DNA of 64,000 bases, taken from an uncultured Bacteroidales bacterium. Its GTDB lineage: Bacteria; Bacteroidota; Bacteroidia; Bacteroidales; VadinHA17. The position numbers and the translations under genes were made by a program. Positions 9,356 to 64,000 of this stretch are shown here, piece by piece. The DNA lies in contig CAVRZV010000011.1 in NCBI GenBank assembly GCA_963725785.1, forward strand, positions 165,956 through 229,955, in the 5' to 3' direction. The notes under the pieces were generated by a model. The model worked only from the letters and a program-made list of their open reading frames with translations. It made no database searches and was not told the origin of the DNA. Numbering within the stretch: the stretch's first letter is position 1; every line of letters starts with the position of its first letter.

Positions 9356-9623
9356 TTTTTATGTAAAGTTAGTATTAATGAAAACCTCTTATAATCTGAG
9401 AATAAAAAAATGTACTGTTACCCGGCTCTTTTCGCTTGTCTGATGTTTCAACTTCAGACGTTATAAATTTATTAACTTGTTCTTATTAATATAGTTAGCA
9501 TCTATTTCCAAAAGAAGAATATATAGCAAGTCATCAATTTCATTAAAATGTTAACAAATTAATATTTATTAACAATTATGCCTCAAATATTGAAATATAT
9601 TAGGTGGGGAGAAGATCATTTCA

Positions 9624-10508: not shown

Positions 10509-10510
10509 AC

Positions 10511-10603
10511 TGAGGCTAAGGCTGAGGCCGAGGTTGAGGTTGAGGTTGAGAATTGTCTTCTTCTAAGCCTTAGCCTTAGCCTCAACCTTAGCTTAGCTCA
10601 ACC
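10511..10603. repeat. Imperfect palindrome built from hexamer units (TGAGGY / RCCTYA) between convergent genes
   Basis: Left arm tgaggctaaggctgaggccgaggttgaggttgaggttgag, right arm aagccttagccttagcctcaaccttagcttagctcaacctta. The right arm overlaps the last codons of the PLP gene. Confidence 0.7.
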
Positions 10604-11778: not shown

Positions 11779-13066
11779 TATTTAATTGTCTGTCGATCAT
11801 AGTATTAATGTTTACCGGATTAAAATCGATATAAAATAACATCCGGTCAAAAAATTCTCCGGTTAAAAATATGGAAATTGTAATAATATCAGTGATTGGG
11901 TTATGCGAAATCAGCCTGAGCCCGGTAACAATCAGGAAAGCCATCCGGAGGAACCTGATTTCAAAATTTGAACTCTTTCTTTTAAGAATCAGATTATGAA
12001 GTGAGGTTCCTAATTTAACTATTGCTATAAAGATAAACGGCAGAATAATTCCTGAAAAAAAAGAAGCAATCAGAATCGCACTCAAAAAAGTCTGACCGCT
12101 ATGCAGTGTAACTGATTTCCTCTTGTCGGCAAAAATGTATACACTATCAATTGCAATGAGCAGACACAAACCTGCTACCGAGGTCGCAATAAGTAGACCT
12201 GGCAGTTGAAAAATAAGTGTAATAGTGCAAAGTGCCAAATAGATAATAAAGAATACTATCTCGCGGCTCAAAGGGGAGTAACTGAAATTTACAACTGCCC
12301 GCAACGATCTGGCCGGTTTGCCAAGGTGAAAGAATGATATCAATGCTGATAGAGAGTTTACCAGTAAAAAAACTGTTCTTTCCGGGTATACACCCATTAT
12401 AAAAGAGGAGATTACAATTGCCACTGACAATGTGGATAAAAAGCTGAATAGAATCAGGCTCAATTCACCTGAAATGCTTTTTCCGGGTACGACAGACCTG
12501 GCAATTTCAGTTTTATTAATATTCTCCGGAATTATTCTTAAAGGATTAGAGCTCTGTCCGGACAAAAATTCAATCGCAGGATTAAGGTTCTTATTTGGAA
12601 ACCACGGATAGGATGCTTCTGAATCAGAGCGCGAAAGTTGTCCAAACTTCAGAGCGCCTGTAGGACATGAAGATGAACATGCCGGCGGCTGACCAGCTTT
12701 TAATCTATTATAACACAGATTACATTTTGTTATTATTTTTTTTTCACGATCGTATTTTGGGGCATCATATGGACAGTTCCACTGACAATATCTGCATCCA
12801 ATACACTTATTCTCATCAAGTACTATAGCTCCTGTAATCAAGTCACGTTTATATGCGGAAGAAGGACAACCATCCATACAAACCGCTGATTCACAATGAT
12901 TACAGGCTAACGTAATATTGATCAGAACTAATGAGGATTCAGCTTCGGAATTATAAGTATAGATGGTTCTTGGACTTACAGCCCAGCCGTTTTCAAGAAT
13001 ACAGGCTGCACTGCAGGCTTTACAGCTCACACATTTATTATGATCAAAAATAAATCCTTCGCGCAT
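11750..13066 (-). CDS. Fusion of a DmsB-like 4Fe-4S ferredoxin and a DmsC-like membrane anchor
   Basis: Four Cys clusters (CVSCKACSAAC, CNHCESAVCMDGCP, CIGCRYCQWNCP, CNLC...CSSSCP), then multiple TM helices with FFHLGKP...SPLSREI (DmsC-like). Confidence 0.85.
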   Translation of the reverse strand: MREGFIFDHNKCVSCKACSAACILENGWAVSPRTIYTYNSEAESSLVLINITLACNHCESAVCMDGCPSSAYKRDLITGAIVLDENKCIGCRYCQWNCPYDAPKYDREKKIITKCNLCYNRLKAGQPPACSSSCPTGALKFGQLSRSDSEASYPWFPNKNLNPAIEFLSGQSSNPLRIIPENINKTEIARSVVPGKSISGELSLILFSFLSTLSVAIVISSFIMGVYPERTVFLLVNSLSALISFFHLGKPARSLRAVVNFSYSPLSREIVFFIIYLALCTITLIFQLPGLLIATSVAGLCLLIAIDSVYIFADKRKSVTLHSGQTFLSAILIASFFSGIILPFIFIAIVKLGTSLHNLILKRKSSNFEIRFLRMAFLIVTGLRLISHNPITDIITISIFLTGEFFDRMLFYIDFNPVNINTMIDRQLNIERDEKKRG

Positions 13067-16406: not shown

Positions 16407-18222
16407 TTAGCCTATTAAGTTTTCAACTGACTTAATAAATTGTGATGTACCTTCATAAATAGACTCAGCCTCCGTACCTGAAGATGATGGAGCAAATCGT
16501 GCAAATTCACAGGTATCAAGGATTTTAGACAGCTTATCTATATTATCTTCGTCTATGCCTTGTTCCTTAAGAGCTGCGATGGCATTGGTTCTGGTAAGAT
16601 CCGAAACAGGAATATTCAGCTTGTCGCTCAGATATCCCCAGATTGCTTTTAGAATTTCATCATAAAACTGATCGATTTCATCATTTTTAAGGCAAAGCGA
16701 GGCTTGATGCAACCTTTTTATTGCAACCTTTCCTGCTTTCCTGTTCTTTACCATTGAAAGGTCAGAATTGCGTCTGATATGCTCTCTTCTAAGAAACAGG
16801 ACCAGAAGAAATGCAAGAAGTGAAAATGCATACAGACTATAGAATGATTGCTTTGATAATATTACATTGCCCGATTTTTTGAGGTTTCCCGGATCAGATT
16901 TAATAAACCTTATATCTTTCCCGAGATATTTGACATCTTCTTTTGATACTCCGCCATATACTGTGGTTCCCGTGTTCTGGTCATTCACCTTACGTGCGTT
17001 AAAATGAAACTCCTCGGTAGTGAGTTTTTCGTATCTTCCAGAGGCAATATTGAAATATGAATAGGAAACAGATGGAATTGTAAAATCTCCATAATGTCTT
17101 GGAATCATCATATATTCAAAACTTTTTTGTCCTGTTGTTCCGTTTATTCCATTCTTCAGATCATCGGATATTTTCGGATCATAAACCTCTATATCAGGTG
17201 ACAATTTAAGTATTGGAGCTGATGCAATTTTCAGATTACCGTTCCCCGATATGGTTACTTTAAAATTTACAGCATCATTTACATTTACAGATTCTTTGCT
17301 AAGGGTTGCTTTGATATCAAGTTTTCCAACCACACCTGAAAAGTCAGCAGGTTTAACTCCCGGCAGCGGCTTAACTTTTATCTTCACTAATTTGCTTGCA
17401 ACAGCCTTTGGTATAGTCTGATATGAAGGGAAAAAATCTCCGAAGAAAGGATCAGACTGTGAACGGGTTTTTTGCTGAATAAGAACAGATATCTGAACAG
17501 GGTCGATTGTAATTTCACCGGTTACCTGGGGATATAAGAGAAACTGCTGGACTACTCCCGATCCATAGATAGTACCATTTACATTTTCCTGCCTTAGTGA
17601 TGTGAGAGGAGGTGTTTCTATATCCGACTTCAGGAAGCTGTTAAATGAGGGGTACTTGATTTCATTTATACCGGCAATATTTACACGTGAATATATTTTT
17701 ACAGTCGCTACTATAGGTTCACCAAGATATATCTCTTTCCGGTTTACTGAAAGATTAATGAAAAGATCATTCCCGGCAGATTCCACTGGTCCATCATCAA
17801 CTGAGTTATTGCCTCCTGATGTTACATTCTGTTTTTGAGATGAACTTCCAACAACTTCAATGTGCATTGAATCGGAGGAGTACGTTTTATTCTTCAGAGT
17901 AAATGTAGCCGGTGGAATAACATATTTTCCCTCCTTAACTGCCTGAAGATAATAAACATAGGAATAGGAAGTCTCATTTGACATTTTTCCGTTTATAATT
18001 TGGGTGTTTGAACTGTAGGATGTTTGCGGACCCATAAAGTTTATAGAATCCATTAAATGATGGAGCTGAAAACTCTCCTCCTCCTGCATTTACAGTCCAC
18101 ATCACAGTGAACTGGTCTCCGCTGTTCACAACAGCAGGATATTCAGCTTTTACATATACATCCTGTCCTGAAACTGAGTATGAAAATATAAAGATCAACA
18201 GATATAATAATGCCTTTTTCAT
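16407..18222 (-). CDS. batD: BatD family protein, frameshifted near 18060
   Basis: Signal peptide, repeated beta-rich domains, FSGVVGK, VNFKVTISGNGN, C-terminal TM and CEFARFAP; bat operon context. Confidence 0.82.
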
Positions 18223-23361: not shown

Positions 23362-24359
23362 CTATGGAACTTCAACAACATTAAGAATTTCGGAGATTAT
23401 ATGATCCTGATTAATATTCTCAGCTTCAGCTTCATATGTCAGACCAATCCTGTGGCGCATAACATCGTGACATATTGTTCTGATATCTTCAGGAATAACA
23501 TATCCCCGTCTTTTTATAAATGCAAATGCTTTTGCTGCAAGAGAAAGATTAATTGAAGCTCTGGGAGATGCTCCGTATGAGATCATATTTTTAAATGCAG
23601 GAAGACCATATTTTTCCGGATTACGGCTTGCAAAAACAATATTCAGAATATAATTTTCGATTTTTTCATCCATATAGACTTCCCTCACAACATTTCGGGC
23701 TCTGATTATATCTTCAGTTTTCAGAACTGTATTGGCTTTTGGAAAATCCTTGGCCAGATTTTCCCTGATGATCAACTTCTCTTCATCCATTGCCGGATAA
23801 TCAATAATGACTTTCATCATGAATCTGTCGATCTGAGCTTCAGGCAGAGGATATGTTCCTTCCTGTTCAATCGGGTTCTGTGTGGCAAGAACCAAGGAAT
23901 GGTTCATCAAGCTTAAATGTATTCTCTCCGATTGTGATCTGTCTCTCCTGCATTGCTTCAAGCAAGTGCGCTCTGAACTTTTGCAGGCGACCTGTTAATC
24001 TCATCGGCAAGAATAAAGTTGGCAAAGACCGGTCCTTTCTTTACTATAAACTCCTCCTTCTTCTGACTGTAAATCATTGTACCTATGAGGTCAGCCGGAA
24101 GGAGATCAGGAGTAAACTGAATCCTGCTGAATTTTGCATCTATTATGGATGCAAGTGATTTTATCGCAAGTGTTTTTGCCAGACCCGGAACACCTTCAAG
24201 CAGGATATGACCATTTGCAAGAAGACCTATCATAAGGCTGTCGGTCAGATGTTTCTGACCAATAATAACTTTGTTCATCTCCATTCTGACAATGTCGACA
24301 AACGAACTCTCTTTTTCTATTTTTTCATTTAAGATCCTGATGTCAGCAGTTTGCTCCAT
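23362..24359 (-). CDS. MoxR-family AAA+ ATPase, two +1 indels (~23962, ~23893)
   Basis: GHILLEGVPGLAKT (Walker A), RIQFTPDLLPAD, LADEINRSPAKVQSAL, LATQNPIEQEGTYPLPEAQIDRF, GASPRA. Confidence 0.9.
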
Positions 24360-28697: not shown

Positions 28698-29342
28698 ATG
28701 GCAAACTTTGATTTAGCCCGTATCCTAATTTTCCTGCCGGGAATAATCCTGGGATTGACAGTACACGAATACTGTCATGCGTTGGTTGCGCATATGTGCG
28801 GAGATTCAACAGCAAAAGACCAGGGAAGAGTCTCGCTTAACCCTTTGAAGCATATAGATCCTCTGGGCTTTATAATGCTGATAATTGCCGGGTTTGGATG
28901 GGCTAAACCGGTACAGTTTAACGAGCAGAATCTGAGAAATCCTAAAAGAGATGTAATAAAAATAGCTCTGGCTGGACCATTATCAAATGCGGTAATCGCA
29001 ATGATACTATCTGTTGTATTCTCACTTTTATCATCAGCCTACCCCGAATATCACACACCTGTTATCAGGGTAATATTTGAAGTATTAAGTTCAGCTATTT
29101 ATTTGAACTGGGCACTCTTTATATTTAATCTTATTCCACTACCTCCTCTTGATGGTTCTCACCTTTTATTGTCTCAGTTTAGAAAATTTCCGGCTCTCTA
29201 TAATGGTTTGTACAAATATGGATCACTCCTATTATTCGGACTGATAATTGTAAGCTTTGTCACTAAAATAAATGTCTTCCCTATTTTGCCCGCCATACAA
29301 TTTTTAGGTAATGGATTTCTCTCACTTGTTGGATTCAGATAA
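28698..29342 (+). CDS. Site-2 protease family (M50) membrane metalloprotease
   Basis: TVHEYCHA (HExxH), NPLKHIDP, FGWAKPV, ALAGP, FNLIPLPPLDG. Confidence 0.92.
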   Translation: MANFDLARILIFLPGIILGLTVHEYCHALVAHMCGDSTAKDQGRVSLNPLKHIDPLGFIMLIIAGFGWAKPVQFNEQNLRNPKRDVIKIALAGPLSNAVIAMILSVVFSLLSSAYPEYHTPVIRVIFEVLSSAIYLNWALFIFNLIPLPPLDGSHLLLSQFRKFPALYNGLYKYGSLLLFGLIIVSFVTKINVFPILPAIQFLGNGFLSLVGFR

Positions 29343-52146: not shown

Positions 52147-54350
52147 TTAATCATCCAGCCCTGACTGGTCGATCATTCTGACTTTTTCCTCAAGTGTTTT
52201 TATCAGTTTTTTTGCGCTTTCGATTTTGTCTTCCACCTCTCTGATCATGGTATCAGCGTTGGTAGATTTTGCAAAAAAACCAATATTATTCTCCCACAAA
52301 ACTATGTCACTTTCAAGCTGTTTAATCTTTGTAAAAAACTTATCACGCTCATTTCTGACTTTTCTTGAAGCTTTAGGATTTGCTTTAAGATTGTCAAGTT
52401 TAGTTTTATATTTAAGGATACTTTTGTCCTCATCACCAATTTTCAGTTTATCAAACTCTTTATTAATGGCTGCCCGATATTTATTGGTGATTTCATCTTT
52501 CATATTAAACGGAACAAAACCAATCTCAGTCCATTTCCTCTGCAATTCTTTCAGGCGTTCGAAAGCAGATTGAACATCAGTTCCCGGTTCAAATTTCTCA
52601 AGTTCATCAATGATGGAGAGTTTTGCTTTCAGATTATCTTCGTAAGATGTATCGAGTGCGGTAAAAAACTCTGTCTTCCTGTTAAAAAAATGATCACATG
52701 CTTTGCGGAATCTCTTCCAGCATCTTTCCGATTGTTTCCTGGGAACGGGACCAATTTCTTTCCACTCTTTCTGCAGTTTTATCAGAGCATCGGAAGTAGC
52801 TTTCCAGTCTGTGCTTTCCTGAAGACTCTCAGCCTGGATACATAATTCCGTCTTCAGCTGCAGGTTATTCATCTGAATCTCTTTATTGTCTGCATAGAAA
52901 CCACGCTTCTTCTCAAAAAAAGTATCACATGCGTCTCTGAATCTCTGATAAACCCTGTTATTTTGCTTTTTAGGAGCAAATCCAATTGTACGCCACATTT
53001 TCTGTAACTCAACTACCTTATCTGCCCTTTCATCAAATTCTTTGAAGTTTTTAATTTCCAGCAGGTTTATGGCATCTACCTCTTCACACAGAGCTATTTT
53101 AGCATCAAGGTTTTTTCTCTGATCGTCTTTCTGTTTTTCAAAGTACTCATGATGTCTTTTGTTTATTTGAGAGGTAGCTTCCTTAAATCTCTCCCAGATC
53201 TCATTTTTTGATTCCTGTGGAACAGGGCCTATCTCGCGCCACTGGTTATGAAAATCCTGTAAAAATCTGAAGGCGTTGACCGGATTTGGTTCGAGAAGGA
53301 GTTCTTCTGCCTTTTCGCATAACAAAACTTTTGCCTCAAAATTCTTTTTAAGGTCAAGGTCTCTCAGCTCTTTATTTATTTTAATATAATCATAGAAAAT
53401 TTCCACATAATGATGATAATTCTCCCAAAGATCTTTCAGCGAAGTCTGAGGCACCACGCCAATAGAATGCCATTCATTCTGAAGCGCTCTGAAGTCATGA
53501 AATGTCTTATTTATTGATTCTTCCCTGTTTACCAGATCTTTGATTTTATCTATTATGTCATACTTTTTTTTCAGGTTTTCATATTTTTCAGCTTCCTGAA
53601 TTTTATTATAGTCGGTTTTTTTCTCTCTGTATTTTTCGAGCAGGTGTTTTACGCGGGCATCTTCAGGGTCAACCCATTGCCTGTACTCCTCAATTTTGCC
53701 TCCACCTTCAAGAAACTTGGCTTTCCTCTCTTCAGCTTCACTCTTTAATTTCTTATAGAAGTGTATTTTTAAGCGTTCAACATCATCCCTGATCTCAACA
53801 GTAGGCCTGTTTTCAATAATCAGAGCCAGTGTCTCAACAAGTTCATGCTTTGAATAACCGGAATAATCAACCTGCGGCAGCTCAATATTTTCAGACTCAT
53901 CAGCTTCCGCAATCACAGGTTCTTCCTTAACCTCCTCAACTACAGGTTCTTCCTTAACCTCCTCAACTATAGGTTCTTCCTTAACCTCCTCAACTATAGG
54001 TTCTTCCTTAACCTCCTCAACTACAGGTTCTTCCTTAACCTCCTCAACTACAGGTTCTTCCTTAACCTCCTCAACACAGGTTCTTCCTTAACCTCCTCAA
54101 CTACAGGTTCTTCCTTAACCTCCTCAACTACAGGTTCTTCCTTAACCTCCTCAATCACAGGTGTCTCATCCGGCTTAAGCCCTTCATTTTCGGTTATTGT
54201 CTCTGTATTAATTTCAGGATCTCCTGCGTCACCAGGAGATTCAAGTTCTTGCGCGTTGTCCGCTTGTGTGGCATCCTCAGTTCCGGTGGCGTTTTCGATA
54301 GCCCCGGATTGTTCTTTACGAACAGAGTCATCCGGATTTTTCTTGGTCAT
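52147..54350 (-). CDS. DUF349 domain protein with acidic N-terminal repeat tract; frame broken in the tract
   Basis: Repeated WRxIGxVP...W.RF...CD.FF units. The N-terminal ORF (54048..54350) joins via the VEEVKEEPV repeats. Confidence 0.85.
53915..54156 (-). repeat. 27-bp tandem repeat, 9 units, encoding VEEVKEEPV
   Basis: Unit ACAGGTTCTTCCTTAACCTCCTCAACT on the + strand; unit 6 (54050-54075) is 26 bp and shifts the frame. Confidence 0.92.
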
Positions 54351-54644
54351 AATCAATCCTTTTATAGTTCAGATCATTGTCAGATATTTGCACACCATGG
54401 CAATCCATGGAATTTTCAGAGTACGAAAATATTGAAATATTTAATAAAACTCAAAGTTTTGACATAAATAAATGTGAGAATCAGATATTAAGACCCTCTT
54501 TAAATGAAGTATTGAAAATATAGAAGTTGACAATTTCATATTTTAAGATGTCAATTACAGGAATTCAGAGAGATAAATTCTATATTTGACCATAAATATG
54601 ATCTAAAAAGGTACTCTGACAAAATAAAATTAAAATATTGAAAG

Positions 54645-54824
54645 ATGGATAAAACTCAAATATTTATCTATTCAGCTGTAATTGCATTAGTGGCTGTAAG
54701 ACTATATCAAAAATTTGTTAAGAAAGATAAAGGTAAATTGGGATCAGATGCTAAACATGGTTCAGATAACTCGATGTTGTCTTCTTCAAAAGATGATGAT
54801 TATGAACCGTACTCCAAAAAGTGA
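54645..54824 (+). CDS. Small single-TM protein (59 aa), not in the ORF track
   Basis: MDKTQIFIYSAVIALVAVRLYQKFVKKDKGK...SSSKDDDYEPYSKK*; A-rich upstream region. Confidence 0.6.
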   Translation: MDKTQIFIYSAVIALVAVRLYQKFVKKDKGKLGSDAKHGSDNSMLSSSKDDDYEPYSKK

Positions 54825-54914
54825 ATAGAAGGAATACTTAACTTTTGTGGGCTCACATTCTACCTGGTATTTGACAGTCTGTAATGGAATAATGGAACTT
54901 TCAGACAGTAGAAC

Positions 54915-55086
54915 AGGAGATCCTTCGCTTCGCTCAGGATGACAGCATTGTTGATGAACACATGGGGTGAAAAAGTGGCGATTCGTACCACTAATCTATC
55001 AATTAGATTTATCTACGAATCGCCACTTTTTCACTCCAATAACACCCTAATTATCTTGTCATCCTGAGCGAAGCGAAGGATCTCCT
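54915..55086. repeat. Nested palindromic element, copy 2
   Basis: Perfect 30-bp outer inverted repeat AGGAGATCCTTCGCTTCGCTCAGGATGACA; inner arms GGGGTGAAAAAGTGGCGATTCGTA / TACGAATCGCCACTTTTTCACTCC. Confidence 0.88.
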
Positions 55087-55132
55087 ACTCACATCATTAG
55101 CAAACTCTCATTTAAAGTATTCTGTTAATAAT

Positions 55133-56422
55133 CTATTTTCTGTTTTTCGACACCATATACCGGAATGGATTTATAATCTTCTGGAGAAGTCTGATCCTCT
55201 CGGTAATGATTTCCGCTGTACCCTGCATATTCTGATTAAAATCAAGTTTTTTACCATATAACGTCGAGAGGCCATCAGGCAATTCAATTTCAATAACATA
55301 AGCATCACCGGAAGGAACTAGTGATTTTGATTTTACAGTACCTCTCACAATTCCATATTCGAGGTAAGGATAACCACTCAGTTTGATATTAACCTTTTGA
55401 TTTATTTTCACTTTGCCGGATCGTTGCATTTTAAGATATATTCTTCCCAGATAGCTGCCAGTAGACAGAGGAACTATGCTCACCACCTGTTCATCTTTAA
55501 CAACTGACTGATTGGCACTCCAGAACTTTGTAAATGAAACAATTCCATCAATGGGCGAAATAAGAAGATAAGTATTCTCCCATAAATTTATCTGGGCCTT
55601 GAGGTTTAAAAAAGATTCGCGCAAAACTGAAACAAGCTTTTCCTTTTCATCCACACGGGTTATGCGATAATCCTGCAAAAGCTGTCGTTTTTCTGCTATC
55701 TCAATTGATTTTGCGGCATGGTCAAGCCTGACCTGCTGAAGCTCTATGTTGACTTTTAAAAGTGATTGATGTGATGTCTCAAATTCACTTTCAGGTATAA
55801 CCTTTCCTGCAAAAAGAGAAGAATCTCTCTTGTACTTTTTTGCCTCAAGACGCCGGTTTTCAGAGTAGAGATTTTCTTTTACTTTTAATCTGCTGACATA
55901 TTCCTGGATACTGACTATTTCATTGTTAAGCGAAGCTATTTTATTACCATACAAATCGTTGGTAATATAGCTATTTAAGTCAGACAGGTTTTTAAGAAAA
56001 GAGCCGTAAATTCCCTGTAATTCACCAAGCCCGGCCAGTAGAGGTAACATCCTGGCAGAAAGTAATTCAGGCCACCTTATAGTATCAATTGTCTGTTTAA
56101 GTAAATTAATTTCCTTCATTGACGCTGTTGTTTCCATTACAGCAATTAATTGTCCGGCCTTAACTTCTTCCTTTTCTTTTACAGAGAAATAGTTAATGCG
56201 TCCGGTTACTTTTGTGACAAGATTCACAGGCGGATTAGTTGTTGTAATTTCGACCGGAGCAGGAATAGTATCCGGATACCTGATCAGCCAGGCAAATACA
56301 ATAAACAGAATAAAAAGCAAAAGAAGAGTAGTTGTACCCCATCTGAGAATTCTCCCCGGCGGTCTTCCCATAATTTCTTTTACAGGTTCAGAGTACTTTA
56401 TTTCCGGCTGCTGATTCTTCAT
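55133..56422 (-). CDS. HlyD-family membrane fusion protein of a peptide exporter
   Basis: N-terminal TM, coiled-coil middle, LISPIDGIV, GKVKINQKVNIKLSGYPYLEYG, GTAEIITE. Confidence 0.9.
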   Translation of the reverse strand: MKNQQPEIKYSEPVKEIMGRPPGRILRWGTTTLLLLFILFIVFAWLIRYPDTIPAPVEITTTNPPVNLVTKVTGRINYFSVKEKEEVKAGQLIAVMETTASMKEINLLKQTIDTIRWPELLSARMLPLLAGLGELQGIYGSFLKNLSDLNSYITNDLYGNKIASLNNEIVSIQEYVSRLKVKENLYSENRRLEAKKYKRDSSLFAGKVIPESEFETSHQSLLKVNIELQQVRLDHAAKSIEIAEKRQLLQDYRITRVDEKEKLVSVLRESFLNLKAQINLWENTYLLISPIDGIVSFTKFWSANQSVVKDEQVVSIVPLSTGSYLGRIYLKMQRSGKVKINQKVNIKLSGYPYLEYGIVRGTVKSKSLVPSGDAYVIEIELPDGLSTLYGKKLDFNQNMQGTAEIITERIRLLQKIINPFRYMVSKNRK

Positions 56423-56431
56423 AAATGATCG

Positions 56432-58618
56432 CTAATTACCCAGTTCAAGTTGATTTTTTACCAGATTGTAATATGCTCCCCGCTTCCCGATAAGTGATTC
56501 GTGTGTACCAGTTTCTATTATCCTGCCGCTATCGAGAACAACAATTTTATCAGCATCTCTTACAGTGCTTAGCCTGTGAGCAACAACAATAACTGTTTTG
56601 TCTTTAAAGAATCCTGTAAGGTTTTCAACAATTGCTTTTTCGTTATTTGCATCAAGAGAGTTGGTTGCTTCATCAAAAATTATAATATCCGGATCCTTAT
56701 AGATTACCCTGGCAATAAGCAGTCTTTGTTTCTGTCCTTCGCTCAGACCATGGCCATTTGCTCCTATCCTGGTATTATATCCGAGAGGCAGTGATTCGAT
56801 AAATACTTTTATATTTGCTATATCAACTGCTCTGACCAACTTTTCCTCATTAATATCTTCTGATCCGGGAGCAATATTAGCTGCAATAGTATCGGGGAAA
56901 AGGAAACCATCCTGCATAACCGCACCCACTTTCTCTCTCCAGACTTTCAGGCTGAGATTTGATAAACGAGTATCGCCAATAAGTATTTCACCGGCTACAG
57001 GATGATAAAAACCAAGCAACATTTTTAATAAAGTTGTTTTTCCACTACCGCTCGTACCGACAATTGCAGTTACTTTATTCCCTTCGATAAACAAATCAAT
57101 GTCTTTTAAAGCAAACGGTGACCGGGGGCCCTCATACTGGTAAGAAAGACTATTAATATATATATCCTTTTTGTCGGGAAGTTTTCTTACTTTCATCTCA
57201 GGTTCAGGCTCTTCTTCCTGCAGGTTATGTACTTCAGCCAGCCTGTCGAGACTCATTTTCGCATCCTGCGACATACGAAAAAAGCCAATTATCTGGCTGA
57301 CAGGTACATTCAACTGACCTATAATAAACTGAACTGCAAGCATCATTCCAAGGGTCATATTACCTTTCAGAACTGCTGTTGCCGCAACTATAGTTATCAG
57401 GACGTTGGTGACTTCATTAATGAATGTAGCGCCTGCTGATTGATACTGGATTATGCTCAATCCTCTGATCTTCAATCCAAACAACGTCGCCTGCAGCTTT
57501 TCCCAATCCCATCGCATACTCAATTCACTCTGGGTCAGCTTAATCTCCTGCATTCCGTTTACTATATTAATAAGCTTGTTTCCTGAAACAGACATTTGCT
57601 TAAAACGCTGATGATCCAGAGCAGCCCTCGATTTCATGAAAATTGAAACCCAAAGTATATATAGTACTGACCCCGTCAGAAATAAAGCGAGGATTTTAAT
57701 ACTATATACTGCAAGAACAATTCCAAAAACAACCAGATTGAAAAATGAGAACAAAATGTTCAGACTTGCAGAAGTAAGAAACTCTTCAATCCGGTTGTTA
57801 TCTTCAATCCGTTGAAGGATATCACCTGTCAGCTTGGTATCAAAAAAAGCCACAGGAAGTGACATCAGTTTTTGAAGAAATCCCGATATCACGGCCACAT
57901 TCACTCTTGACCCGATATGTAGAAGCAACCAGCCTCTTATGAATTCAACAGACATCCTCCCAAAAACAAGAGCAAGCTGGGCAAAAAGAATCAGATAAAT
58001 AAATCCTATATCGTTGTTATTAAGGCCAATATCTATAATTGACTGGGTAAGAAAAGGAATAACCAGCTGGATACAGCTTCCAAGAACTAATCCCAGAACC
58101 AATTGGTAGAGATATTTCCGATAGATTCGAAAATATTTAAAAAGGAATTTAAAACCGTTTGTTTTATCCGGTTCATTCTCATTGTCATAAAGTGCCGGAG
58201 TAGGTTCAATTATTAATACCAGGCCTGCCGGTATTCCATCAACAACGGTAGATGCCCAGTTCTGAACAAATTCTTCACGAGTGAATTCCATTAGTCCAAC
58301 AGCAGGATCGGCGATCCAGATTTTGTCGTTTTTGATCTTGTAAACAACTACAAAATGTTTTTGCCTCCAGTGAACTATACATGGAAATGGGACATTCTCA
58401 TTCAAAATCTCAAAATGGACTTTTACTCCTATAGTTCTGAATCCCAAAGAATCAGCAGCTTCTGATAGTCCCAGGAATGAGACTCCCTCTCTTGTTATGT
58501 AACACTTTTTTCTTAGAGATTCAAGTGAAAAATTCATTTTGTAAAACCCTGCTACCATCTTTAGACAGGCAGGTCCGCAATCCATTGCATCAGGCTGTTT
58601 TACAAATGGGAAAGACAT
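56432..58618 (-). CDS. Peptidase-containing ABC transporter (C39 peptidase + TMD + ATPase)
   Basis: QPDAMDCGPACL (Cys), HWRQKHFVV (His), IADPA (Asp); six TM helices; GTSGSGKTT, LSEGQKQR, FDEATNSLD, VAHRLST. Confidence 0.95.
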   Translation of the reverse strand: MSFPFVKQPDAMDCGPACLKMVAGFYKMNFSLESLRKKCYITREGVSFLGLSEAADSLGFRTIGVKVHFEILNENVPFPCIVHWRQKHFVVVYKIKNDKIWIADPAVGLMEFTREEFVQNWASTVVDGIPAGLVLIIEPTPALYDNENEPDKTNGFKFLFKYFRIYRKYLYQLVLGLVLGSCIQLVIPFLTQSIIDIGLNNNDIGFIYLILFAQLALVFGRMSVEFIRGWLLLHIGSRVNVAVISGFLQKLMSLPVAFFDTKLTGDILQRIEDNNRIEEFLTSASLNILFSFFNLVVFGIVLAVYSIKILALFLTGSVLYILWVSIFMKSRAALDHQRFKQMSVSGNKLINIVNGMQEIKLTQSELSMRWDWEKLQATLFGLKIRGLSIIQYQSAGATFINEVTNVLITIVAATAVLKGNMTLGMMLAVQFIIGQLNVPVSQIIGFFRMSQDAKMSLDRLAEVHNLQEEEPEPEMKVRKLPDKKDIYINSLSYQYEGPRSPFALKDIDLFIEGNKVTAIVGTSGSGKTTLLKMLLGFYHPVAGEILIGDTRLSNLSLKVWREKVGAVMQDGFLFPDTIAANIAPGSEDINEEKLVRAVDIANIKVFIESLPLGYNTRIGANGHGLSEGQKQRLLIARVIYKDPDIIIFDEATNSLDANNEKAIVENLTGFFKDKTVIVVAHRLSTVRDADKIVVLDSGRIIETGTHESLIGKRGAYYNLVKNQLELGN

Positions 58619-58741
58619 TTCAGGTCTATGGAAATTGATTTTTAAGCAAAGTAAAGATATTTATTTTGGTTCAGATATCCCACGATTAAGATAAAATCAG
58701 TACCTCAAGGTATATAACGGGAGTTTTGACTTTTGAAATAC

Positions 58742-58749
58742 TATATTTG
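58742..58749 (+). promoter_or_regulatory. Bacteroidota housekeeping -7 box upstream of the ECF sigma gene
   Basis: TATATTTG matches TAnnTTTG; TTTG about 20 nt upstream; 28 nt before the start codon. Confidence 0.6.
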
Positions 58750-58777
58750 CCATTTGATTCTTCTTAAGTAAAAGGGG

Positions 58778-59344
58778 TTGTTTAAAAAAATATCTGATAT
58801 TGACTTACTTGAGGGTGTACGCAATCAGGATGGAAAAGTCCTGAATTGGCTATATGACAATTATTTACAAGCTGTCAAAAAACATGTTCTTAATAACAGC
58901 GGATCTATTGAAGATGTTTCCGATGTTTTTCAGGATACCATAATAATTCTGTATAAACAGATATCAGAGGACCATTTGAGTCTAACAACCGACCTCAAAG
59001 GTTATTTTTTTGGGATCGCACGTAACGTCTGGAGTGCACAGCTTAGAAAAAAACAAAAAACATTTGAACTGGAATTTGAAATTACCGATGAAGCGGAATC
59101 GGAAAACAGATACGACCCTACTCTGGAGAGGATTGTCAGCAGAGTATTTCAAAAACTAAAGCCTGATCAGCAGATGGTGCTGAATTTGTTCTCCGAAGGT
59201 ATTTCCTACGAAGAGATCGCGTCGAAGATGAATCTTAAAAATGAGATCTACGCCAGAAGGAAAAAATATCTGTGCAAAGAGTCTCTTCTTGAGCTTCTGA
59301 AAGAAGATCCTGAATATCAGGAGTATTTGCGTTTTCTAAAATAA
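58778..59344 (+). CDS. ECF (sigma-70 family) sigma factor
   Basis: 188 aa; region 2 (LYDNY...EDVSDVFQDTIIILY...YFFGIARNVW) and region 4 (LKPDQQMVLNLFSEGISYEEIASKM). Confidence 0.9.
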   Translation: MFKKISDIDLLEGVRNQDGKVLNWLYDNYLQAVKKHVLNNSGSIEDVSDVFQDTIIILYKQISEDHLSLTTDLKGYFFGIARNVWSAQLRKKQKTFELEFEITDEAESENRYDPTLERIVSRVFQKLKPDQQMVLNLFSEGISYEEIASKMNLKNEIYARRKKYLCKESLLELLKEDPEYQEYLRFLK

Positions 59345-62300
59345 AATCCGTAAAACAGAAGCAGGATTACAATGGGTACTGTAACAAAAACTTTCCATTT
59401 GGCAGAATAGTACAAAGGCTCATTATTTCCATATACTACCAGCGCAGACCAGAAATAAGGATGTGACCTTAACCTGTCGGCTGTTTTTAAGAAGCCGATT
59501 CTTGCCTTTCTTAGTGATACACTTTTCGAATACCCTCTTTTGAGGTTTTTATAGAACATTTCAACAATCTCAGTACCCGATTTATCTTCGATTTCCCACA
59601 TTGACATCACCACTGACTGACTTCCTGAATAGATAAAGCCTCTGGCAAGACTTAAAATACCTTCACCTGAATTCAACAGTCCTGTTCCGGTATTACACGA
59701 GCTGAGTACCACCATTTTGGCTTTAAGGGGAATTCCATAAATTTCAAATGTCTTGAGATACCCATCTTCAGGAGGATCATTTCCCCGGTCGAAGATCAAT
59801 GTTGAATGCATAGGATCTTTTTCATTTACCAGGGTATGCATAGCCAGATGGATAATATCGTATTTCCCTGATTCATTTTTATATACCGATTCTTTTGCTT
59901 CATTGTTTTCAAAAAGAATTCCCCCTGTTATTCTTGATACATATTCTGCTTCCTGCCGGGCATAGGGTAGATCGTTTAGCTTACCCAATCCTGCCTGTCT
60001 CGACATTAATACTGATTGTATATCAATGGGTTCAGGGTAATTTGGAGCAAATGCAATTAGCTTGTTCCTTCTGCTGGATTCCTTTTTTGACGATTCAGCT
60101 AAAAAAGTAGCAGAGTATGTATACGAAATATCAAAATCGTTCATCATGTAATTCAAATCCCTGTACATAAGGCCTTCTCTCTGAACTGCATCAGTTGGAA
60201 TAGTTTCAAATGGCAGGTATGAAAGAAAACTGTCAGGTGAAATAAATACCTTGTCAGAAATAAGGTATGATCTGACCGGTTCTATCAAAATTTTATATAA
60301 CCTGTATCCGGTTGACTGGAATTCATTAAATTTCTTAGAAGCATTTTCAGCAGGCAATGGCAGCGATAACAGACCCCTGAACCGTTTAACATCATTGAAG
60401 AATGATGTATCGACAGGTATTGCAAGCAACTGCTGATTTTTCCTGTTTACAACAAAAGTATACAATACAGTATCTGAGATCACATAATTAATATAATTTC
60501 CATTGTGGCCAATTACTGCAGGAATATCCTTAAGCCCAATCGTTTGAGTGTTATATTTAATGGCATAATACTCCGGATATTGTTTTTCAAATACAAGAAT
60601 GAGGGAATCTCTTTTTCTTATATCCTCCAGAAGATTTTCCTTCCATTTTGCTATTAATAGCATATTTGGGGTTTCTCCGGCCGATTCTTCGGCTATGCGG
60701 ATATTGAACAGGCTGATTTCACGCTTCAGATCCCTTTCATAGTCTCCTATCTCAGAAGGGATATGAAACTGTGCTGCCTTCAATTCCCGGGTGGAAGTCA
60801 ATAAAACTGCAACTTTGCTTTTTTCCGAATATTCAAATGCCTTTTCTCGGAAATACGGATCAGCAGTTTTATTGTACAGGAGATTAAAATCCCGTATCGC
60901 ATTTAGATACGACTCCCTGTATTTGTCTCCCAATATTAACCTGCTTTCCTCTTCACTGATATTTATTCTGACTCTATCGATCAGCGAAACAATTAATTCT
61001 GAAGTATTTGATGCCGCTTCAAGGATTTTCTGTTCGGGCTTTCTCATATAGATATCCCATAAAATATTATATTTTAGCCTGAGTATCCTGAGAGAAGTTT
61101 GGTCGGGCTTCAAAGATTCAAGTCCGGGATTAACTAAATTTGCTTTTATAGCAATATTATCACTGTCCGGAAAAAGTAATGACTGAATTATTTCCAAAGC
61201 TTTTTCTGATTTGCCTTCTACTTCCAGTGAACGAGAATAACCTATATAAACAGATGTTTTTAAGAATTGGTCATGAACATTTTTATTAACATAATCCATG
61301 CACTCCAGATAACATTCAATTGATTTTCTATTGTCGATCCTGTAATCTCTTAAATAGGCTGCATAATTATTTAAAACTTCAAAATAATCGCGGGGATTAA
61401 GTTCAAATCGGGCTTTTGACCTGACCAGAGCATTTTTCAACAGTTTCTCACCCTTTTTTTCTTCATTATCATTCCCAAGAAAAATACAATAGCTGTTTAT
61501 CAGGTTATAGCTTAATGATGAATTGTTGGAAATAGAAAGTGCTACCCCCTTCTCGTAATACTTACCTGCTTCTTCTTTGAGGCCAAGAGCATAATAAGTT
61601 ATTGCCAGGCCATTCAGTAAATTAATAAAATTGTCATTTTGATCGATGCCGGAAGTTTCATAAATTGATTCAGTTTTGTCGAGGTAGATTTTTGCTTTCG
61701 AGAAATCAGCCAGCCTGTTATAGCATACACCTAAATTGTAGTAGAGATCGGCCATTACAGCAGAAGATACCTTTCCGGGGTTTTTGTTTGCGATTGACAG
61801 CGCAATATTTGAATTATTTAATGCTATTTCATATTTTTTCTGCTCTACATAAGCTGAAATCAGCGACAAATATAAGCTTACCAGATCCGGACTTGATTCA
61901 CTATAAATTACTTTACCTATCTCAACCGATTTCGATGCATATTCCTCAAACTTATTTAAATCTTCGAGATTGGAGTATACAACACTAAGATTATAAAGTG
62001 CCCTGGCATAGCGAATATCAAGTTCATTGTTTTTTTCTTTTATAGAAATGCATCGATTGAGGTACAATATTGCTTCATTATAGCTTTTTATCTTTAAAAA
62101 ATAGATCCCGATTAAATAATAAGACTCCGACAAGATGGTATCACCAATGCTATTGGCACTTATCTTTTGCAATATGTTGTTAACTGTTAGTCTGCCCTGT
62201 GACATATCACCGTTAGTAAGCCTGGTTTTAAGGGATTCATTCAGATATTCGACCTCCTTTGAGGTCTTGTTAATGGAATCATTAAGCGGGCTTATGATCT

Positions 62301-62421
62301 GTTTATTCAGGTCAAAGTTTAAAAAAGATCGTTCGGTACCATAGATAACAGATGTATGAAGAGATCCGGTAGAGATTAAAACATAAAATATAAATCTTAT
62401 AATTCGATTCCTCGATTTCAT
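59317..62421 (-). CDS. TPR + CHAT (caspase-like) protease with C-terminal membrane anchor
   Basis: Multiple TPR-like repeats; ISPDSFLSYLPFETI, IIHLAMH (His), VVLSSCNTG (Cys), SVVMSMWEIED, HPYFWSALV; C-terminal hydrophobic helix followed by RKRK. Confidence 0.9.
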   Translation of the reverse strand: MKSRNRIIRFIFYVLISTGSLHTSVIYGTERSFLNFDLNKQIISPLNDSINKTSKEVEYLNESLKTRLTNGDMSQGRLTVNNILQKISANSIGDTILSESYYLIGIYFLKIKSYNEAILYLNRCISIKEKNNELDIRYARALYNLSVVYSNLEDLNKFEEYASKSVEIGKVIYSESSPDLVSLYLSLISAYVEQKKYEIALNNSNIALSIANKNPGKVSSAVMADLYYNLGVCYNRLADFSKAKIYLDKTESIYETSGIDQNDNFINLLNGLAITYYALGLKEEAGKYYEKGVALSISNNSSLSYNLINSYCIFLGNDNEEKKGEKLLKNALVRSKARFELNPRDYFEVLNNYAAYLRDYRIDNRKSIECYLECMDYVNKNVHDQFLKTSVYIGYSRSLEVEGKSEKALEIIQSLLFPDSDNIAIKANLVNPGLESLKPDQTSLRILRLKYNILWDIYMRKPEQKILEAASNTSELIVSLIDRVRINISEEESRLILGDKYRESYLNAIRDFNLLYNKTADPYFREKAFEYSEKSKVAVLLTSTRELKAAQFHIPSEIGDYERDLKREISLFNIRIAEESAGETPNMLLIAKWKENLLEDIRKRDSLILVFEKQYPEYYAIKYNTQTIGLKDIPAVIGHNGNYINYVISDTVLYTFVVNRKNQQLLAIPVDTSFFNDVKRFRGLLSLPLPAENASKKFNEFQSTGYRLYKILIEPVRSYLISDKVFISPDSFLSYLPFETIPTDAVQREGLMYRDLNYMMNDFDISYTYSATFLAESSKKESSRRNKLIAFAPNYPEPIDIQSVLMSRQAGLGKLNDLPYARQEAEYVSRITGGILFENNEAKESVYKNESGKYDIIHLAMHTLVNEKDPMHSTLIFDRGNDPPEDGYLKTFEIYGIPLKAKMVVLSSCNTGTGLLNSGEGILSLARGFIYSGSQSVVMSMWEIEDKSGTEIVEMFYKNLKRGYSKSVSLRKARIGFLKTADRLRSHPYFWSALVVYGNNEPLYYSAKWKVFVTVPIVILLLFYGFYFRKRKYS

Positions 62422-62462
62422 TTGCTGATTTAAAATTGATATGTTCCCCTTTTTTTCCTGAT

Positions 62463-62470
62463 CAAAGATA
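62463..62470 (-). promoter_or_regulatory. Bacteroidota housekeeping -7 box upstream of the CHAT gene
   Basis: Minus strand TATCTTTG, about 40 nt before the ATG at 62421. Confidence 0.55.
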
Positions 62471-62661
62471 ATAAAACCAAATCATTTTAATTAATTATGA
62501 AAAATGCATAGCTCTCTAATCAATTGATTATGTGTAAGAAAAAAAATATTTTAAAAATATGTGTTTTTTTTGTGTCACAAAATACCATCTTCGGACATGT
62601 AGTAGTGTGTAATCTGAATTAAAGAATGTCAAGACTAAGTACTAAACTAAAAATAACTGAT

Positions 62662-62796
62662 ATGAAAACCGAGAATTCAAAAATGACTATCGACAATTTC
62701 AATAATTTTGCACTTTCAAATGAAGAGATGATTAACATTCGTGGTGGCGAAGGTGATCCGACTATAAAAATAACAAAACCCCCGATAATTATCTGA
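62662..62796 (+). CDS. Double-glycine-leader peptide precursor (44 aa), not in the ORF track
   Basis: MKTENSKMTIDNFNNFALSNEEMINIRGG|EGDPTIKITKPPIII*. The leader matches LSxxE(L/M)xxIxGG exactly. A-rich translation initiation region; hairpin just downstream; C39 exporter in the same cluster. Confidence 0.85.
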   Translation: MKTENSKMTIDNFNNFALSNEEMINIRGGEGDPTIKITKPPIII

Positions 62797-62808
62797 CAAC
62801 AAGAATAC

Positions 62809-62832
62809 TTCCTGTTTTAGCGAAGACAGGAA
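62809..62832 (+). terminator. Hairpin after the peptide gene (probable terminator or stabiliser)
   Basis: TTCCTGTTT-TAGCG-AAGACAGGAA; the T tract that follows is weak. Confidence 0.5.
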
Positions 62833-63032
62833 CCGTTTATTTGATATACTTCAGTTGAGTTAAAGAGGATGTGAATTATACAATCCACTGGTCAATCAGT
62901 GGTCTTGCTATGAATCGAACATTAATAAAACATATGCTGACAATTTAGAATTTATACCTGACTTTAAACAGATTAAAACGATCGGCAGGTTATGAGATGG
63001 ATTTAATTAAAACGAAATAATATTTAATCTCT

Positions 63033-63782
63033 ATGAAAACAGTAGATTTTTCATACTTCATCGAACGGCATATTGCCGGTGAGATGAGTGATGCAGAAAA
63101 ACAGTGGTTCCTTAAGGAACTTGACGGTAACGAGAAACTCAGAAATGAGGTCAATCTCAGGAAGAGAACCGATGAAATTCTCAAGGATCGAAACGTAATG
63201 TCGTTAAGAAATAAACTTTCTGAAATTGAGAAGACCAGAAACGGAGCAATTGAACCTTCGAAAACCTCTAAAAAATCAAATTTCATTAAGTATGCCGCAG
63301 TTATTGCAGGAGTGGCGCTTATTGGAAGCTTAACATTGTTCTCGGGGAAGCATCTTAGTAATGATGAAATCCTGAAACGCTATTACAAAACTTATGAACC
63401 ACCGACAAGTCAGAGGTCAGCAAATATAGAAACTGATGAAGATTTTACTCTGGCTCTTGAGTTTTATAATACACGCGATTATGAGAAGGCTGCAATTCTT
63501 TTCAATAAAGTTCTTGAAAATAAGCCAAACGATATGCAGACTGTTTTACTAAAAGGTGTTTCAAATTTTGAAGAACAAAAATATCCGGAAGCCAAACAAT
63601 CATTTAATAAGGTGATAGACAACAAAGACAATCTTTATATTGATCAGGCTCAATGGTATCTGTCCTTATGTTATCTGAATACCAATGAAAATGACAAAGC
63701 TATACAACTATTGAAAGTAATTGTAAAAGATAATGGCAATTATAAAGACGAGGCAAACAAGATAATCAGGGAATTAAAATAA
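63033..63782 (+). CDS. Anti-sigma-like membrane protein: N-terminal helical domain, one TM, C-terminal TPRs
   Basis: IERHIAGEMSDAEKQWFLKELDGNEKLRNEV (zinc-free anti-sigma-like), TM FIKYAAVIAGVALIGSLTLF, TPR motifs ALEFYNTRDYEKAA and QAQWYLSLCYL. Confidence 0.72.
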   Translation: MKTVDFSYFIERHIAGEMSDAEKQWFLKELDGNEKLRNEVNLRKRTDEILKDRNVMSLRNKLSEIEKTRNGAIEPSKTSKKSNFIKYAAVIAGVALIGSLTLFSGKHLSNDEILKRYYKTYEPPTSQRSANIETDEDFTLALEFYNTRDYEKAAILFNKVLENKPNDMQTVLLKGVSNFEEQKYPEAKQSFNKVIDNKDNLYIDQAQWYLSLCYLNTNENDKAIQLLKVIVKDNGNYKDEANKIIRELK

Positions 63783-63839
63783 ATCTTATTTACTTCATTT
63801 TATACCAAAGGTTAATTAAGAAGATATGATTCACAATAG

Positions 63840-64000
63840 ATGACGAGCGAGATGGAGAATGATTCGAATATATCGAGGAATGATATGGTAAATTGCCCGA
63901 CAGTTTTAATTGGGATCTCTCATGAGATGAGAACTCACATGAATGCAATTGTAGCATTTTCATTTCTCATGAAAGATAATGGTTGCAACGATTCGGACCG
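63840..64000 (+). CDS. Start of a HisKA-domain (histidine kinase-like) protein, truncated by the window end
   Basis: ATG at 63840 gives MTSEMENDS...VLIGISHEMRTHMNAIVAFSFLM, matching the H-box pattern SHE(I/M)RTPMNAI. Confidence 0.65.
   Translation, partial: MTSEMENDSNISRNDMVNCPTVLIGISHEMRTHMNAIVAFSFLMKDNGCNDSD

Follow-up and report, generated by a model that had tools for sequence, protein, structure and literature searches.

Does a peptide exporter that is encoded next to a caspase-like protease and a sigma factor belong with them, and what could the exported peptide do for the sigma factor? This question is raised by a locus near the end of a 64,000-nucleotide stretch of DNA, hereafter called the window, which covers positions 165956-229955 of contig C11 (CAVRZV010000011.1) in the 3.85-Mb, 19-contig assembly of an uncultured Bacteroidales bacterium. 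The locus comprises eight genes, which encode a histidine kinase, an anti-sigma-like protein (anti-sigma factor, ASF), a peptide with a double-glycine (GG) leader, a CHAT protease with tetratricopeptide repeats (TPRs), a sigma factor of the extracytoplasmic function (ECF) type, a peptidase-containing ABC transporter (PCAT), an HlyD protein and a small protein of 59 amino acids (aa). An earlier note on this DNA had proposed that the exported core of the peptide binds the TPRs of the CHAT protease, which would then cut the anti-sigma and free the sigma; all parts that it named were recovered in the list of open reading frames (ORFs) and in domain scans. Our answer is a layered one. The locus appears to be one functional module rather than two neighbouring systems, in which a triad of ECF, ASF and CHAT is wired to the exported peptide in a self-reinforcing loop, and we put the probability of this layered explanation as a whole at about 0.5. 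Loci fetched for comparison carry L-numbers (L002, L011, L071 etc.), contigs of the bacterium's own genome C-numbers.

Linkage of the peptide and protease genes across the order

A survey of the order covered 301 genomes, of which 68 contained CHAT homologues at 27-39% identity, and 40 loci were fetched. Homologues of the ECF and ASF genes flank the CHAT gene in about 35 of these 40 loci. Genes for GG-leader peptides stand immediately beside CHAT in 12 of them, belonging to at least ten other GTDB families. These 12 loci show a rearranged gene order, different flanks and a peptide gene in one to four tandem copies, and in every peptide-type locus this gene directly adjoins CHAT in divergent orientation. 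A full-length PCAT was present in all 12 peptide-type genomes, in ten of them within 15 kb of CHAT (0.17 expected), as compared with seven of the 27 genomes without a peptide gene beside CHAT (Fisher p=1.3e-5). Judged from these gene neighbourhoods, the linkage of the peptide/PCAT half with the CHAT/ECF/anti-sigma half is real and far exceeds chance. The earlier note had named beforehand the linkage of the two halves in other genomes as the point at which its reading could fail, and on this point the reading came through.

In 22 of the 40 loci (L008, L012-L014, L016, L018, L019, L022-L028, L031-L034, L036-L038 and L046) the position upstream of CHAT is occupied by a co-directional gene for a cargo protein of about 413 aa. 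This protein consists of a signal peptide, CarboxypepD_reg and dockerin-like parts and a C-terminal sorting domain of the secretion system of type IX (T9SS). In the CHAT tree, the proteins of the cargo type fall into one supported clade (SH-aLRT 98) and the window clade is supported with a value of 100, while the other peptide-type proteins make up a poorly resolved grade. The triad was found in many families of the order and less often elsewhere in Bacteroidota; among 40 CHAT loci from outside the order (24-33% identity) fewer ECF or ASF neighbours were detectable, and matches of a regular expression for GG leaders in these loci were judged to be spurious. On this distribution, the ECF/ASF/CHAT triad is the general unit and the link to a peptide is a lineage-restricted version of it.

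Conservation of the locus in the window's clade

More than 120 cluster representatives of the CHAT protein, at 58-89% identity, occur in metagenomes, and 12,778 representatives were retrieved at E<=1e-30 from a library clustered at 50%. The gene order HK<ASF<peptide<CHAT>ECF<PCAT>HlyD>sm59<DUF349>CTP synthase>YidC (HK, kinase; sm59, 59-aa protein) is common to four metagenome loci and 80 species-level GTDB loci. The latter all belong to uncultured Bacteroidales from fens, peat, sediments, lakes and digesters, and their CHAT proteins are 46-72% identical to that of the window. The flanks are formed by genes for DUF349, CTP synthase, YidC, NamZ and 5'-nucleotidase. As far as can be read from gene order, this conservation shows a fixed, vertically inherited chromosomal feature, unlike the patchy islands of bacteriocins. 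Upstream of the DUF349 gene, an acidic ORF of 102 aa with the threefold repeat EEVKEEPVV was observed at 54048-54356 of the window; it is probably an N-terminal extension of the DUF349 protein, because the orthologues have 658-662 aa as compared with the 589 aa called here.

Expression signals of the peptide gene

The peptide gene is preceded by an element of two blocks, which reads TGTCACAA, a variable spacer of 11-14 nt and GACATGTA. In L003-L007 the two blocks are conserved and the spacer varies. The exact pattern was found in 55 clade loci, and with no more than two mismatches in at least 71 of the 80, in one copy per locus that is always placed ahead of the peptide gene. The element differs from the Bacteroidota housekeeping TAnnTTTG box. 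In the bacterium's own genome it is essentially unique with one other comparable site; this second site, at C10:187056, has no ORF behind it and was taken as a chance occurrence.

Autoregulated promoters are the rule for the ECF class of sigma factors. A motif related to the element, GGTTACC-TTTT...GGAATTAAT, stands in other lineages ahead of the ECF gene as well as ahead of the gene for the cargo protein or the peptide. The motif co-varies at the ECF and product genes, being GGTTACCTTTT...GGAATAT at both places in L011 and GGGACATTTT...ATGTTATAAAT at both in L042. Many of the cargo genes (e.g. in L013, L016, L023, L027, L028 and L036-L038) share the form GGTTACC...AATTAAT with their ECF gene; in a few loci (e.g. 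L014, L024, L033) it was not evident within 180 nt of the cargo gene. These promoters provide good comparative evidence that the sigma factor of the module would drive the adjoining gene for a secreted product, which lends comparative support to the sigma-to-peptide arm of the proposed loop.

The stop codon of the peptide gene is followed by a hairpin (fold -14.2 kcal/mol, z -1.96). Arms that could form such a hairpin were seen by eye, without folding, at the same place in L004 and less clearly in L005. The hairpin suggests that the peptide transcript may be abundant and may partly continue into the ASF and kinase genes.

Properties of the exported peptide

The GG leader and the 15-aa core described in the earlier note are in place, but the start of the gene had to be corrected. 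According to the orthologues it is the internal Met at 62662, resulting in a precursor of 44 aa with the leader ...LSNEEMINIRGG, which ends in ...EEMINIRGG, and the core EGDPTIKITKPPIII. The precursor matches no Pfam family, and in NCBIfam only a weak match below threshold to the CFB GG-leader model TIGR04149 was obtained. Orthologous peptides were found in at least 70 species. The 69 distinct cores of the clade have 12-18 aa, are rich in Pro (26%) and Ile (18%), carry a mean net charge of -0.8 and are essentially free of Cys and aromatic residues. They begin with an acidic [DE]-x-[DE]-P and end with a conserved PP[IV]x[IL].

The combination of a double-glycine leader, a C39 PCAT and an accessory protein is that of class II bacteriocins. 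The core is not that of a membrane-active bacteriocin, which is usually 25-60 aa long, cationic and amphipathic and comes with a dedicated immunity gene. Scans for Pfam and NCBIfam domains across 54645-64625 found no enzyme that modifies ribosomally synthesised peptides, and no immunity gene is recognisable at the locus, where the gene of the 59-aa protein is the only uncharacterised small gene; in both respects the earlier note was confirmed. The nearest radical-SAM gene is situated about 3 kb beyond the kinase gene, downstream of which unrelated housekeeping genes follow; it is part of the housekeeping flank that is conserved in every orthologous locus read and is taken to be QueE-like, judged from its N-terminal sequence. 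The properties of the peptide seem closer to those of an extended TPR ligand than to those of a bacteriocin that acts on membranes. It looks like a ligand and not like a toxin, because it is short, Pro-rich, acidic and Cys-free with a conserved C-terminus, and because the locus occupies a fixed site in 80 species instead of being patchy.

Tandem copies of the peptide gene were also observed. L071, a locus in the metagenome-assembled genome of an uncultured Bacteroidales bacterium, has five identical copies (~8950-9760) at a spacing of 196 bp, each reading ...GG|DGDPIVMPTQPPIII; L039 contains four diverged copies, L011 and L017 two each.

The protease, the sigma factor and the anti-sigma-like protein

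The CHAT protein is composed of a signal peptide, about nine TPR pairs, a helical scaffold, the CHAT domain and a C-terminal transmembrane (TM) anchor. The TM scan marked the hydrophobic signal at the N-terminus and a segment at 1005-1030, which is followed by the basic tail RKRKYS. Because of this combination of a signal peptide with a C-terminal TM and basic tail, the TPR array and the protease domain are predicted to face the periplasm, where the bulk of the protein should reside. In each of two independent alignments, of 29 and 38 homologues, residues H858, H862 and C909 do not vary; by this conservation the catalytic dyad, C909 with H858 or H862, is intact. The AlphaFold2 (AF2) model is confident in the TPR part and poor over the CHAT part, with values of the predicted local distance difference test (pLDDT) of 30-60 over residues 842-948, and a fold search of the PDB with this model returned TPR superhelices only (LGN, OGT, Ctr9). 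When the profile of the CHAT family was compared with PDB sequences, the best 60 of 78 matches all fell into the TPR part (query residues 47-301); NprR appeared among the matches as a generic TPR match (1.7e-6). With a mean pairwise distance of 0.59 the TPR array of the CHAT protein is the fastest-evolving part of the module, compared to 0.55 for the peptide core, 0.35 for the CHAT catalytic domain and 0.19-0.23 for PCAT.

The gene of the ECF sigma factor overlaps convergently by 28 nt with the 3' end of the CHAT gene. Its product scored 55 bits with TIGR02937 (cutoff 42.9) in the profile scan, and 2.2e-4 with NF041236, the model of the sigma factor in type III-E systems, which is below the cutoff of that model.

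In the AF2 model of the 249-aa protein (mean pLDDT 78.6), four helices at the N-terminus (6-71) are followed by a TM helix (86-100), disorder at residues 126-132 and three TPRs (136-248). Basic residues precede the TM, so that the N-domain is predicted to be cytoplasmic. Pfam recognised only TPR families in this protein, and its TPR part matches the small peptide-binding TPR domains of YbgF, BamD, Hop, Sti1 and CHIP. No solved anti-sigma domain was matched in the profile and fold searches; because TPR matches dominate both, the anti-sigma assignment rests on layout and gene context. In most relatives the ASF gene directly follows the ECF gene in the same direction, paired as in a sigma/anti-sigma operon, which agrees with the earlier description of the TM-TPR protein as anti-sigma-like; in the window the two genes are not adjacent. 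We hence regard the 249-aa protein as an anti-sigma-like partner of the module's ECF sigma.

The residues R128-S129 of ASF are invariant in 33 clade sequences, and the pair is kept in at least 80% of the rows when all 43 ASF homologues of both architectures are aligned. It lies about 22-25 residues after the TM, inside the linker stretch that is disordered in the AF2 model. Proteases of clan CD have a strict P1 specificity and several of them take Arg; hence R128-S129 is a concrete candidate for a site-1 cleavage site. Genes for M50 site-2 proteases are present in the genome. A short Peptidase_M50 match was noticed in a 218-aa frame at 28731-29183 of the window (C11:194686-195138), and a second M50 gene, at C16:101945-103205, appears broken over three frames.

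Further genes of the locus and of the genome

The features are listed in Table 1. The N-terminal part of PCAT contains the cysteine of the DCGPAC motif, and the window PCAT is the only full-length, unbroken PCAT reading frame in the assembly. The HlyD gene is always directly downstream of PCAT, and a TM at residues 24-53 was found in the N-terminus of its product. The 59-aa protein, for which no Pfam or NCBIfam match was obtained, is encoded between HlyD and DUF349, as in L003-L005 and most of the 80 clade loci. Its hydrophobic stretch stays below the threshold of the TM scan, and the C-terminal (D/E)(D/E)YEPYSKK is invariant among the orthologues.

The earlier note had correctly recognised the start of a HisKA gene at the window end; in the genome this ORF is complete and encodes a 261-aa protein without TM segment or sensor domain. 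The kinase is therefore predicted to be cytoplasmic. Its orthologues show HisKA and a faint HATPase_c. The gene is part of most complete loci among the 80 clade loci and occurs in about 13 of the 40 distant loci. No response regulator gene adjoins it; the nearest single-domain receiver is encoded about 6 kb away in the syntenic flank.

A second, paralogous module without a PCAT of its own was found at C10:10356-16815, part of which is covered by L002. In a genome-wide scan, the genome had only two strict GG-leader ORFs, each of them beside one of its only two CHAT genes. A second pair of HlyD and C39-ABC genes, which includes the one further C39 gene of the genome, lies at C7:17427-20760, with the transporter split into frames of 509 and 139 aa, and is either a pseudogene or an assembly error; the strict genome-wide scan found no GG-leader ORF near this pair. 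Contig C10 has two further peculiarities. A short tandem repeat reading HPAPSTQ/GAGCWVP in translation (C10:12250-12590, 17440-17860 and 23570-24140) flanks the second module on both sides and recurs 6 kb further on; it could be a simple repeat or the scar of a mobile element. Moreover, C10:1-2200 contains Arg/Ala/Pro-rich frames that look high in GC against about 37% GC for the genome, and looks like a chimeric contig end or contamination.

Table 1. Features of the locus in the window (window coordinates) and of the second module on contig C10 (contig coordinates)
Feature	Position	Strand	Evidence and remarks
59-aa small protein (sm59)	54645-54824	+	hydrophobic N-terminal stretch, conserved C-terminal DDYEPYSKK; membership uncertain
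HlyD-family membrane fusion (adaptor) protein of the peptide exporter	55133-56422	-	HlyD_3 5.1e-08; TIGR01843 7.3e-23
PCAT (C39 protease, ABC permease, ATPase)	56432-58618	-	Peptidase_C39 1.4e-38; ABC_membrane 1.5e-28; ABC_tran 3.4e-30; TIGR01193 3.3e-127
ECF-type sigma factor, 188 aa, TTG start	58778-59344	+	Sigma70_r2 6.6e-07; Sigma70_r4_2 2.7e-05; TIGR02937 7e-15
TPR-CHAT protein, 1034 aa	59317-62421	-	CHAT 1.6e-51 at residues 704-999; several TPR families
Two-block ECF-type promoter of the peptide gene	62573-62601	+	TGTCACAAA, variable spacer, CGGACATGTA
Double-glycine precursor, 44 aa	62662-62796	+	leader MKTENSKMTIDNFNNFALSNEEMINIRGG, core EGDPTIKITKPPIII
Hairpin and T-rich tail, probable leaky terminator before the anti-sigma gene	62809-62832	+	10 pairs
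Anti-sigma-like protein (ASF), 249 aa	63033-63782	+	N-domain 1-71, TM 84-106, RS linker, 3-TPR 136-248
HisKA kinase gene start	63840-64000; ORF to 64625, past the window end	+	HisKA match at H-box ISHEMRTHMNAIV
C10 module, kinase, short	10356-11321	-	
C10 module, ECF sigma factor	11809-12426	+	
C10 module, ASF-like protein, 345 aa	12694-13728	+	
C10 module, CHAT open frame, 732 aa	13692-15887	-	
C10 module, GG-leader ORF	16576-16815	-	core EGEGDGGCPVIIIPNQKCEKNS...

Proposed mechanism and alternative explanations

The layered explanation can be put into the following sequence of steps. The 44-aa precursor would be cut after Gly-Gly and exported by the adjoining PCAT and HlyD, as known for these families, and its gene would be transcribed from the ECF-type promoter, as the comparison of loci suggests, with the leaky terminator passing some transcripts into the anti-sigma and kinase genes. 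In the periplasm, the Pro-rich 15-aa peptide might be bound either by the fast-evolving TPR array of the CHAT protein or by the three-TPR domain of ASF, which resembles peptide-binding TPR domains and may be an equally good candidate receptor. Binding could license CHAT to cut the juxtamembrane linker of ASF at the conserved Arg-Ser, after which an M50 site-2 protease and cytoplasmic proteases would complete the degradation of ASF. The freed sigma would then raise the transcription of the peptide, anti-sigma and kinase genes, and the sensor-less kinase might relay the state to a response regulator. The full chain is a much more specific claim. It states that the exported linear Pro-rich peptide is the specific ligand that gates a stand-alone periplasmic CHAT as site-1 protease on the Arg-Ser of ASF, thereby freeing the ECF sigma for the peptide gene, and that the sister modules read their T9SS cargo likewise; in this complete form it appears rather doubtful to us.

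Several observations speak against a loop of this kind. Most relatives of the triad carry no peptide, and none of the 40 CHAT loci outside the order had a GG peptide or a PCAT; since these 40 loci lack a GG peptide and about 22 of the 40 order-level loci hold a T9SS cargo gene instead, the triad does not need a peptide ligand. The 80 clade loci count as one inherited arrangement and not as 80 independent cases, because their housekeeping flanks are equally syntenic. In the window lineage itself, the ECF gene is not preceded by the peptide-type promoter; it has a housekeeping-like TATATTTG box instead, and the assignment of the peptide promoter to this sigma is therefore made by analogy with the sister lineages. 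PCAT and HlyD normally export across both membranes, so that the peptide of about 1.6 kDa would need to re-enter the periplasm, and no importer, of the Opp type or any other, is encoded in the cluster. The mirror-tree comparison gave significant partial correlations of core divergence with the periplasmic domains ASF-TPR (partial r 0.42) and CHAT-TPR (0.38) in partial Mantel tests controlled with a housekeeping protein, next to a weak one with the cytoplasmic ASF N-domain (0.15) and none with the C39 domain (0.00); this signal is weak and not specific to receptor domains, because the ECF sigma and the CHAT catalytic domain correlate significantly with the core, too. The poor model of the CHAT domain gave no structural view of the active site or of its relation to DdvA. 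Finally, the sequence was found in no RNA run among the public read runs, and a small share of its words in two DNA metagenome runs.

A clear alternative is that the peptide is an output only. The triad would sense another envelope or extracellular cue, the sigma would turn on the secreted product of the lineage, be it the GG peptide or a T9SS cargo protein, and this product would act outside the cell, for example on competitors, surfaces or nutrients, without any feedback. Unrelated secreted products fill the slot adjoining CHAT according to lineage, both behind a sigma-type promoter, the architecture of PCAT and HlyD suggests export out of the cell, the triad lives without the peptide in most genomes, and neighbours of ECF genes may be targets instead of regulators (Casas-Pastor et al., PMC7826278). 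Nevertheless, the core is too short, acidic and Pro-rich for a typical class II bacteriocin and has no immunity gene at the locus, which is fixed and universally kept across a large clade, unlike patchy weapon loci. Furthermore, peptide-type and cargo-type CHAT proteins fall into separate clades, implying that the protease diverged with the product, for which a pure output would give no reason. We regard an output without feedback as possible, if on the unlikely side. It is also conceivable that CHAT acts on the peptide, which it could trim, mature or destroy, for example at the acidic N-terminus, or which could set CHAT activity as a competitive substrate or inhibitor. The strict divergent neighbourhood of the two genes in all peptide-type loci, the shared [DE]-x-[DE]-P start of the cores and the strict P1 specificity of clan CD proteases would agree with such a role. 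However, cleavage before proline is generally disfavoured, the conserved Arg-Ser is found in the anti-sigma and not in the peptide, and the presence of CHAT beside ECF and anti-sigma genes in peptide-less loci would be left unexplained, which makes this role quite improbable.

The least probable explanations deny any relation between the two halves. The triad could be a defence regulator that senses phages or stress, with the peptide genes as incidental cargo, since TPR-CHAT, anti-sigma and ECF parts are shared with DdvA/DdvS, which controls a CBASS/CRISPR island (PMC11506125). General domain scans, which did not include a PADLOC scan, found no defence genes in or beside the cluster, though, the flanks are of the housekeeping type, and the association of peptide, PCAT and CHAT is statistically strong; we consider this reading very unlikely. 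Hardly credible is the view that the halves are unrelated neighbours merely held by inherited synteny. Within the window clade the housekeeping flanks are indeed as conserved as the cluster, but at least ten other families show the association in a rearranged order and with other flanks, a second locus exists in the same genome, and the presence of PCAT tracks the peptide-type CHAT loci (p=1.3e-5). On balance, the reading of the locus as one module with the triad wired to the exported peptide is the one that we prefer.

Significance

We know of no genetically encoded peptide signal described for Bacteroidota, and none was found in the literature searched, nor was a publication describing this Bacteroidales module. 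To our knowledge, it is also mostly unknown what triggers ECF anti-sigma factors whose periplasmic domains are large. The module is tractable in this regard, as it offers a defined 15-aa candidate ligand, a promoter, a protease active site and a predicted cleavage site, R128-S129. If the layered explanation holds true, bacterial envelope signalling would be seen to use caspase-like proteases as sensors, the autoproteolysis model of DdvA would have a natural test in the split system, and a handle would be gained on the sensing of other cells or of the secretion state in abundant uncultured Bacteroidales of peat, sediments and digesters. Should even the full chain apply, it would constitute a peptide-pheromone-like circuit of Bacteroidota with a principle of transduction that was not found in the literature searched. 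If the peptide is an output only, the locus would still define an uncharacterised ECF group of large size that has a dedicated protease partner.

Comparison with known systems

The earlier note overstated the lack of precedent, because DdvA/DdvS already joins TPR-CHAT with an anti-sigma (PMC11506125), and an exported peptide that frees an ECF sigma is already proposed for MibX/MibW (summarised in PMC4203916). One candidate for a match was dismissed: ECF54, a group for which CHAT neighbours are reported, is actinobacterial and has no anti-sigma. CHAT goes unmentioned in the main text of the ECF reclassification paper.

Among peptide signalling systems, ComC/ComAB/ComDE and BlpC/BlpAB/BlpHR resemble the module in that a PCAT, together with an accessory protein, processes and exports a GG precursor and that the peptide gene belongs to its own induced regulon. 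They rely on a polytopic membrane histidine kinase as receptor, paired with a response regulator, whereas the kinase of the window is soluble and sensor-less and the regulatory factor is an ECF sigma. RRNPP proteins are cytoplasmic, combine TPRs with a helix-turn-helix or phosphatase output and depend on re-import of the peptide, whereas both TPR proteins of the window are predicted to be periplasmic and have no helix-turn-helix. In Craspase, the type III-E CRISPR system, the TPR-CHAT protease Csx29 cleaves Csx30, which holds an RpoE-like sigma (PMC10028731). Like the module, it links a TPR-CHAT protease genetically with a sigma and with a sigma-binding partner, the substrate in Craspase and a candidate substrate in the window, but Craspase is cytoplasmic, RNA-guided and bound to Cas7-11, in contrast to the predicted periplasmic protease of the window, and no cas genes were found in the window region or in orthologous loci.

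In Microbispora, the exported ribosomal peptide microbisporicin has been proposed to inactivate the membrane anti-sigma MibW, to free the ECF sigma MibX and to boost its own cluster (Foulston and Bibb 2011, summarised in PMC4203916). This system belongs to an actinomycete, concerns an antibiotic lanthipeptide with modification and immunity genes, and has no CHAT protease and no C39 PCAT. The PorA-PorXY-SigP system of Porphyromonas gingivalis, in which the secreted T9SS cargo PorA is the ligand of an envelope sensor upstream of an ECF sigma (PMC12152298), parallels the sister modules of the T9SS-cargo type. Its sensor is a two-component system instead of an anti-sigma with CHAT, and there is no GG peptide.

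The closest known system is DdvA/DdvS of Myxococcus xanthus. DdvA is a single anti-sigma protein that consists of a zinc-binding N-domain, a TM and a periplasmic TPR-CHAT part and has the ECF sigma DdvS as partner; it is proposed that a signal induces the CHAT part to cleave its own juxtamembrane linker at site-1, followed by RseP (PMC11506125). Fused proteins of this kind occur in Myxococcota species and one Comamonas species of the Pseudomonadota, and the active site of DdvA has been described as incomplete (PMC11506125). The window module likewise encodes an ECF sigma together with the system, and its CHAT is predicted to be periplasmic as well. Unlike DdvA, its protease and anti-sigma are two proteins, the 1034-aa CHAT protein being free of an anti-sigma domain and the 249-aa protein free of CHAT. 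By eye, no H-x3-C-x2-C zinc motif is seen in ASF residues 1-70, the His/Cys dyad is invariant where that of DdvA is incomplete, and a GG-leader peptide and a PCAT are attached, with no defence island. By analogy, the window module thus reads as a split version of the fused DdvA.

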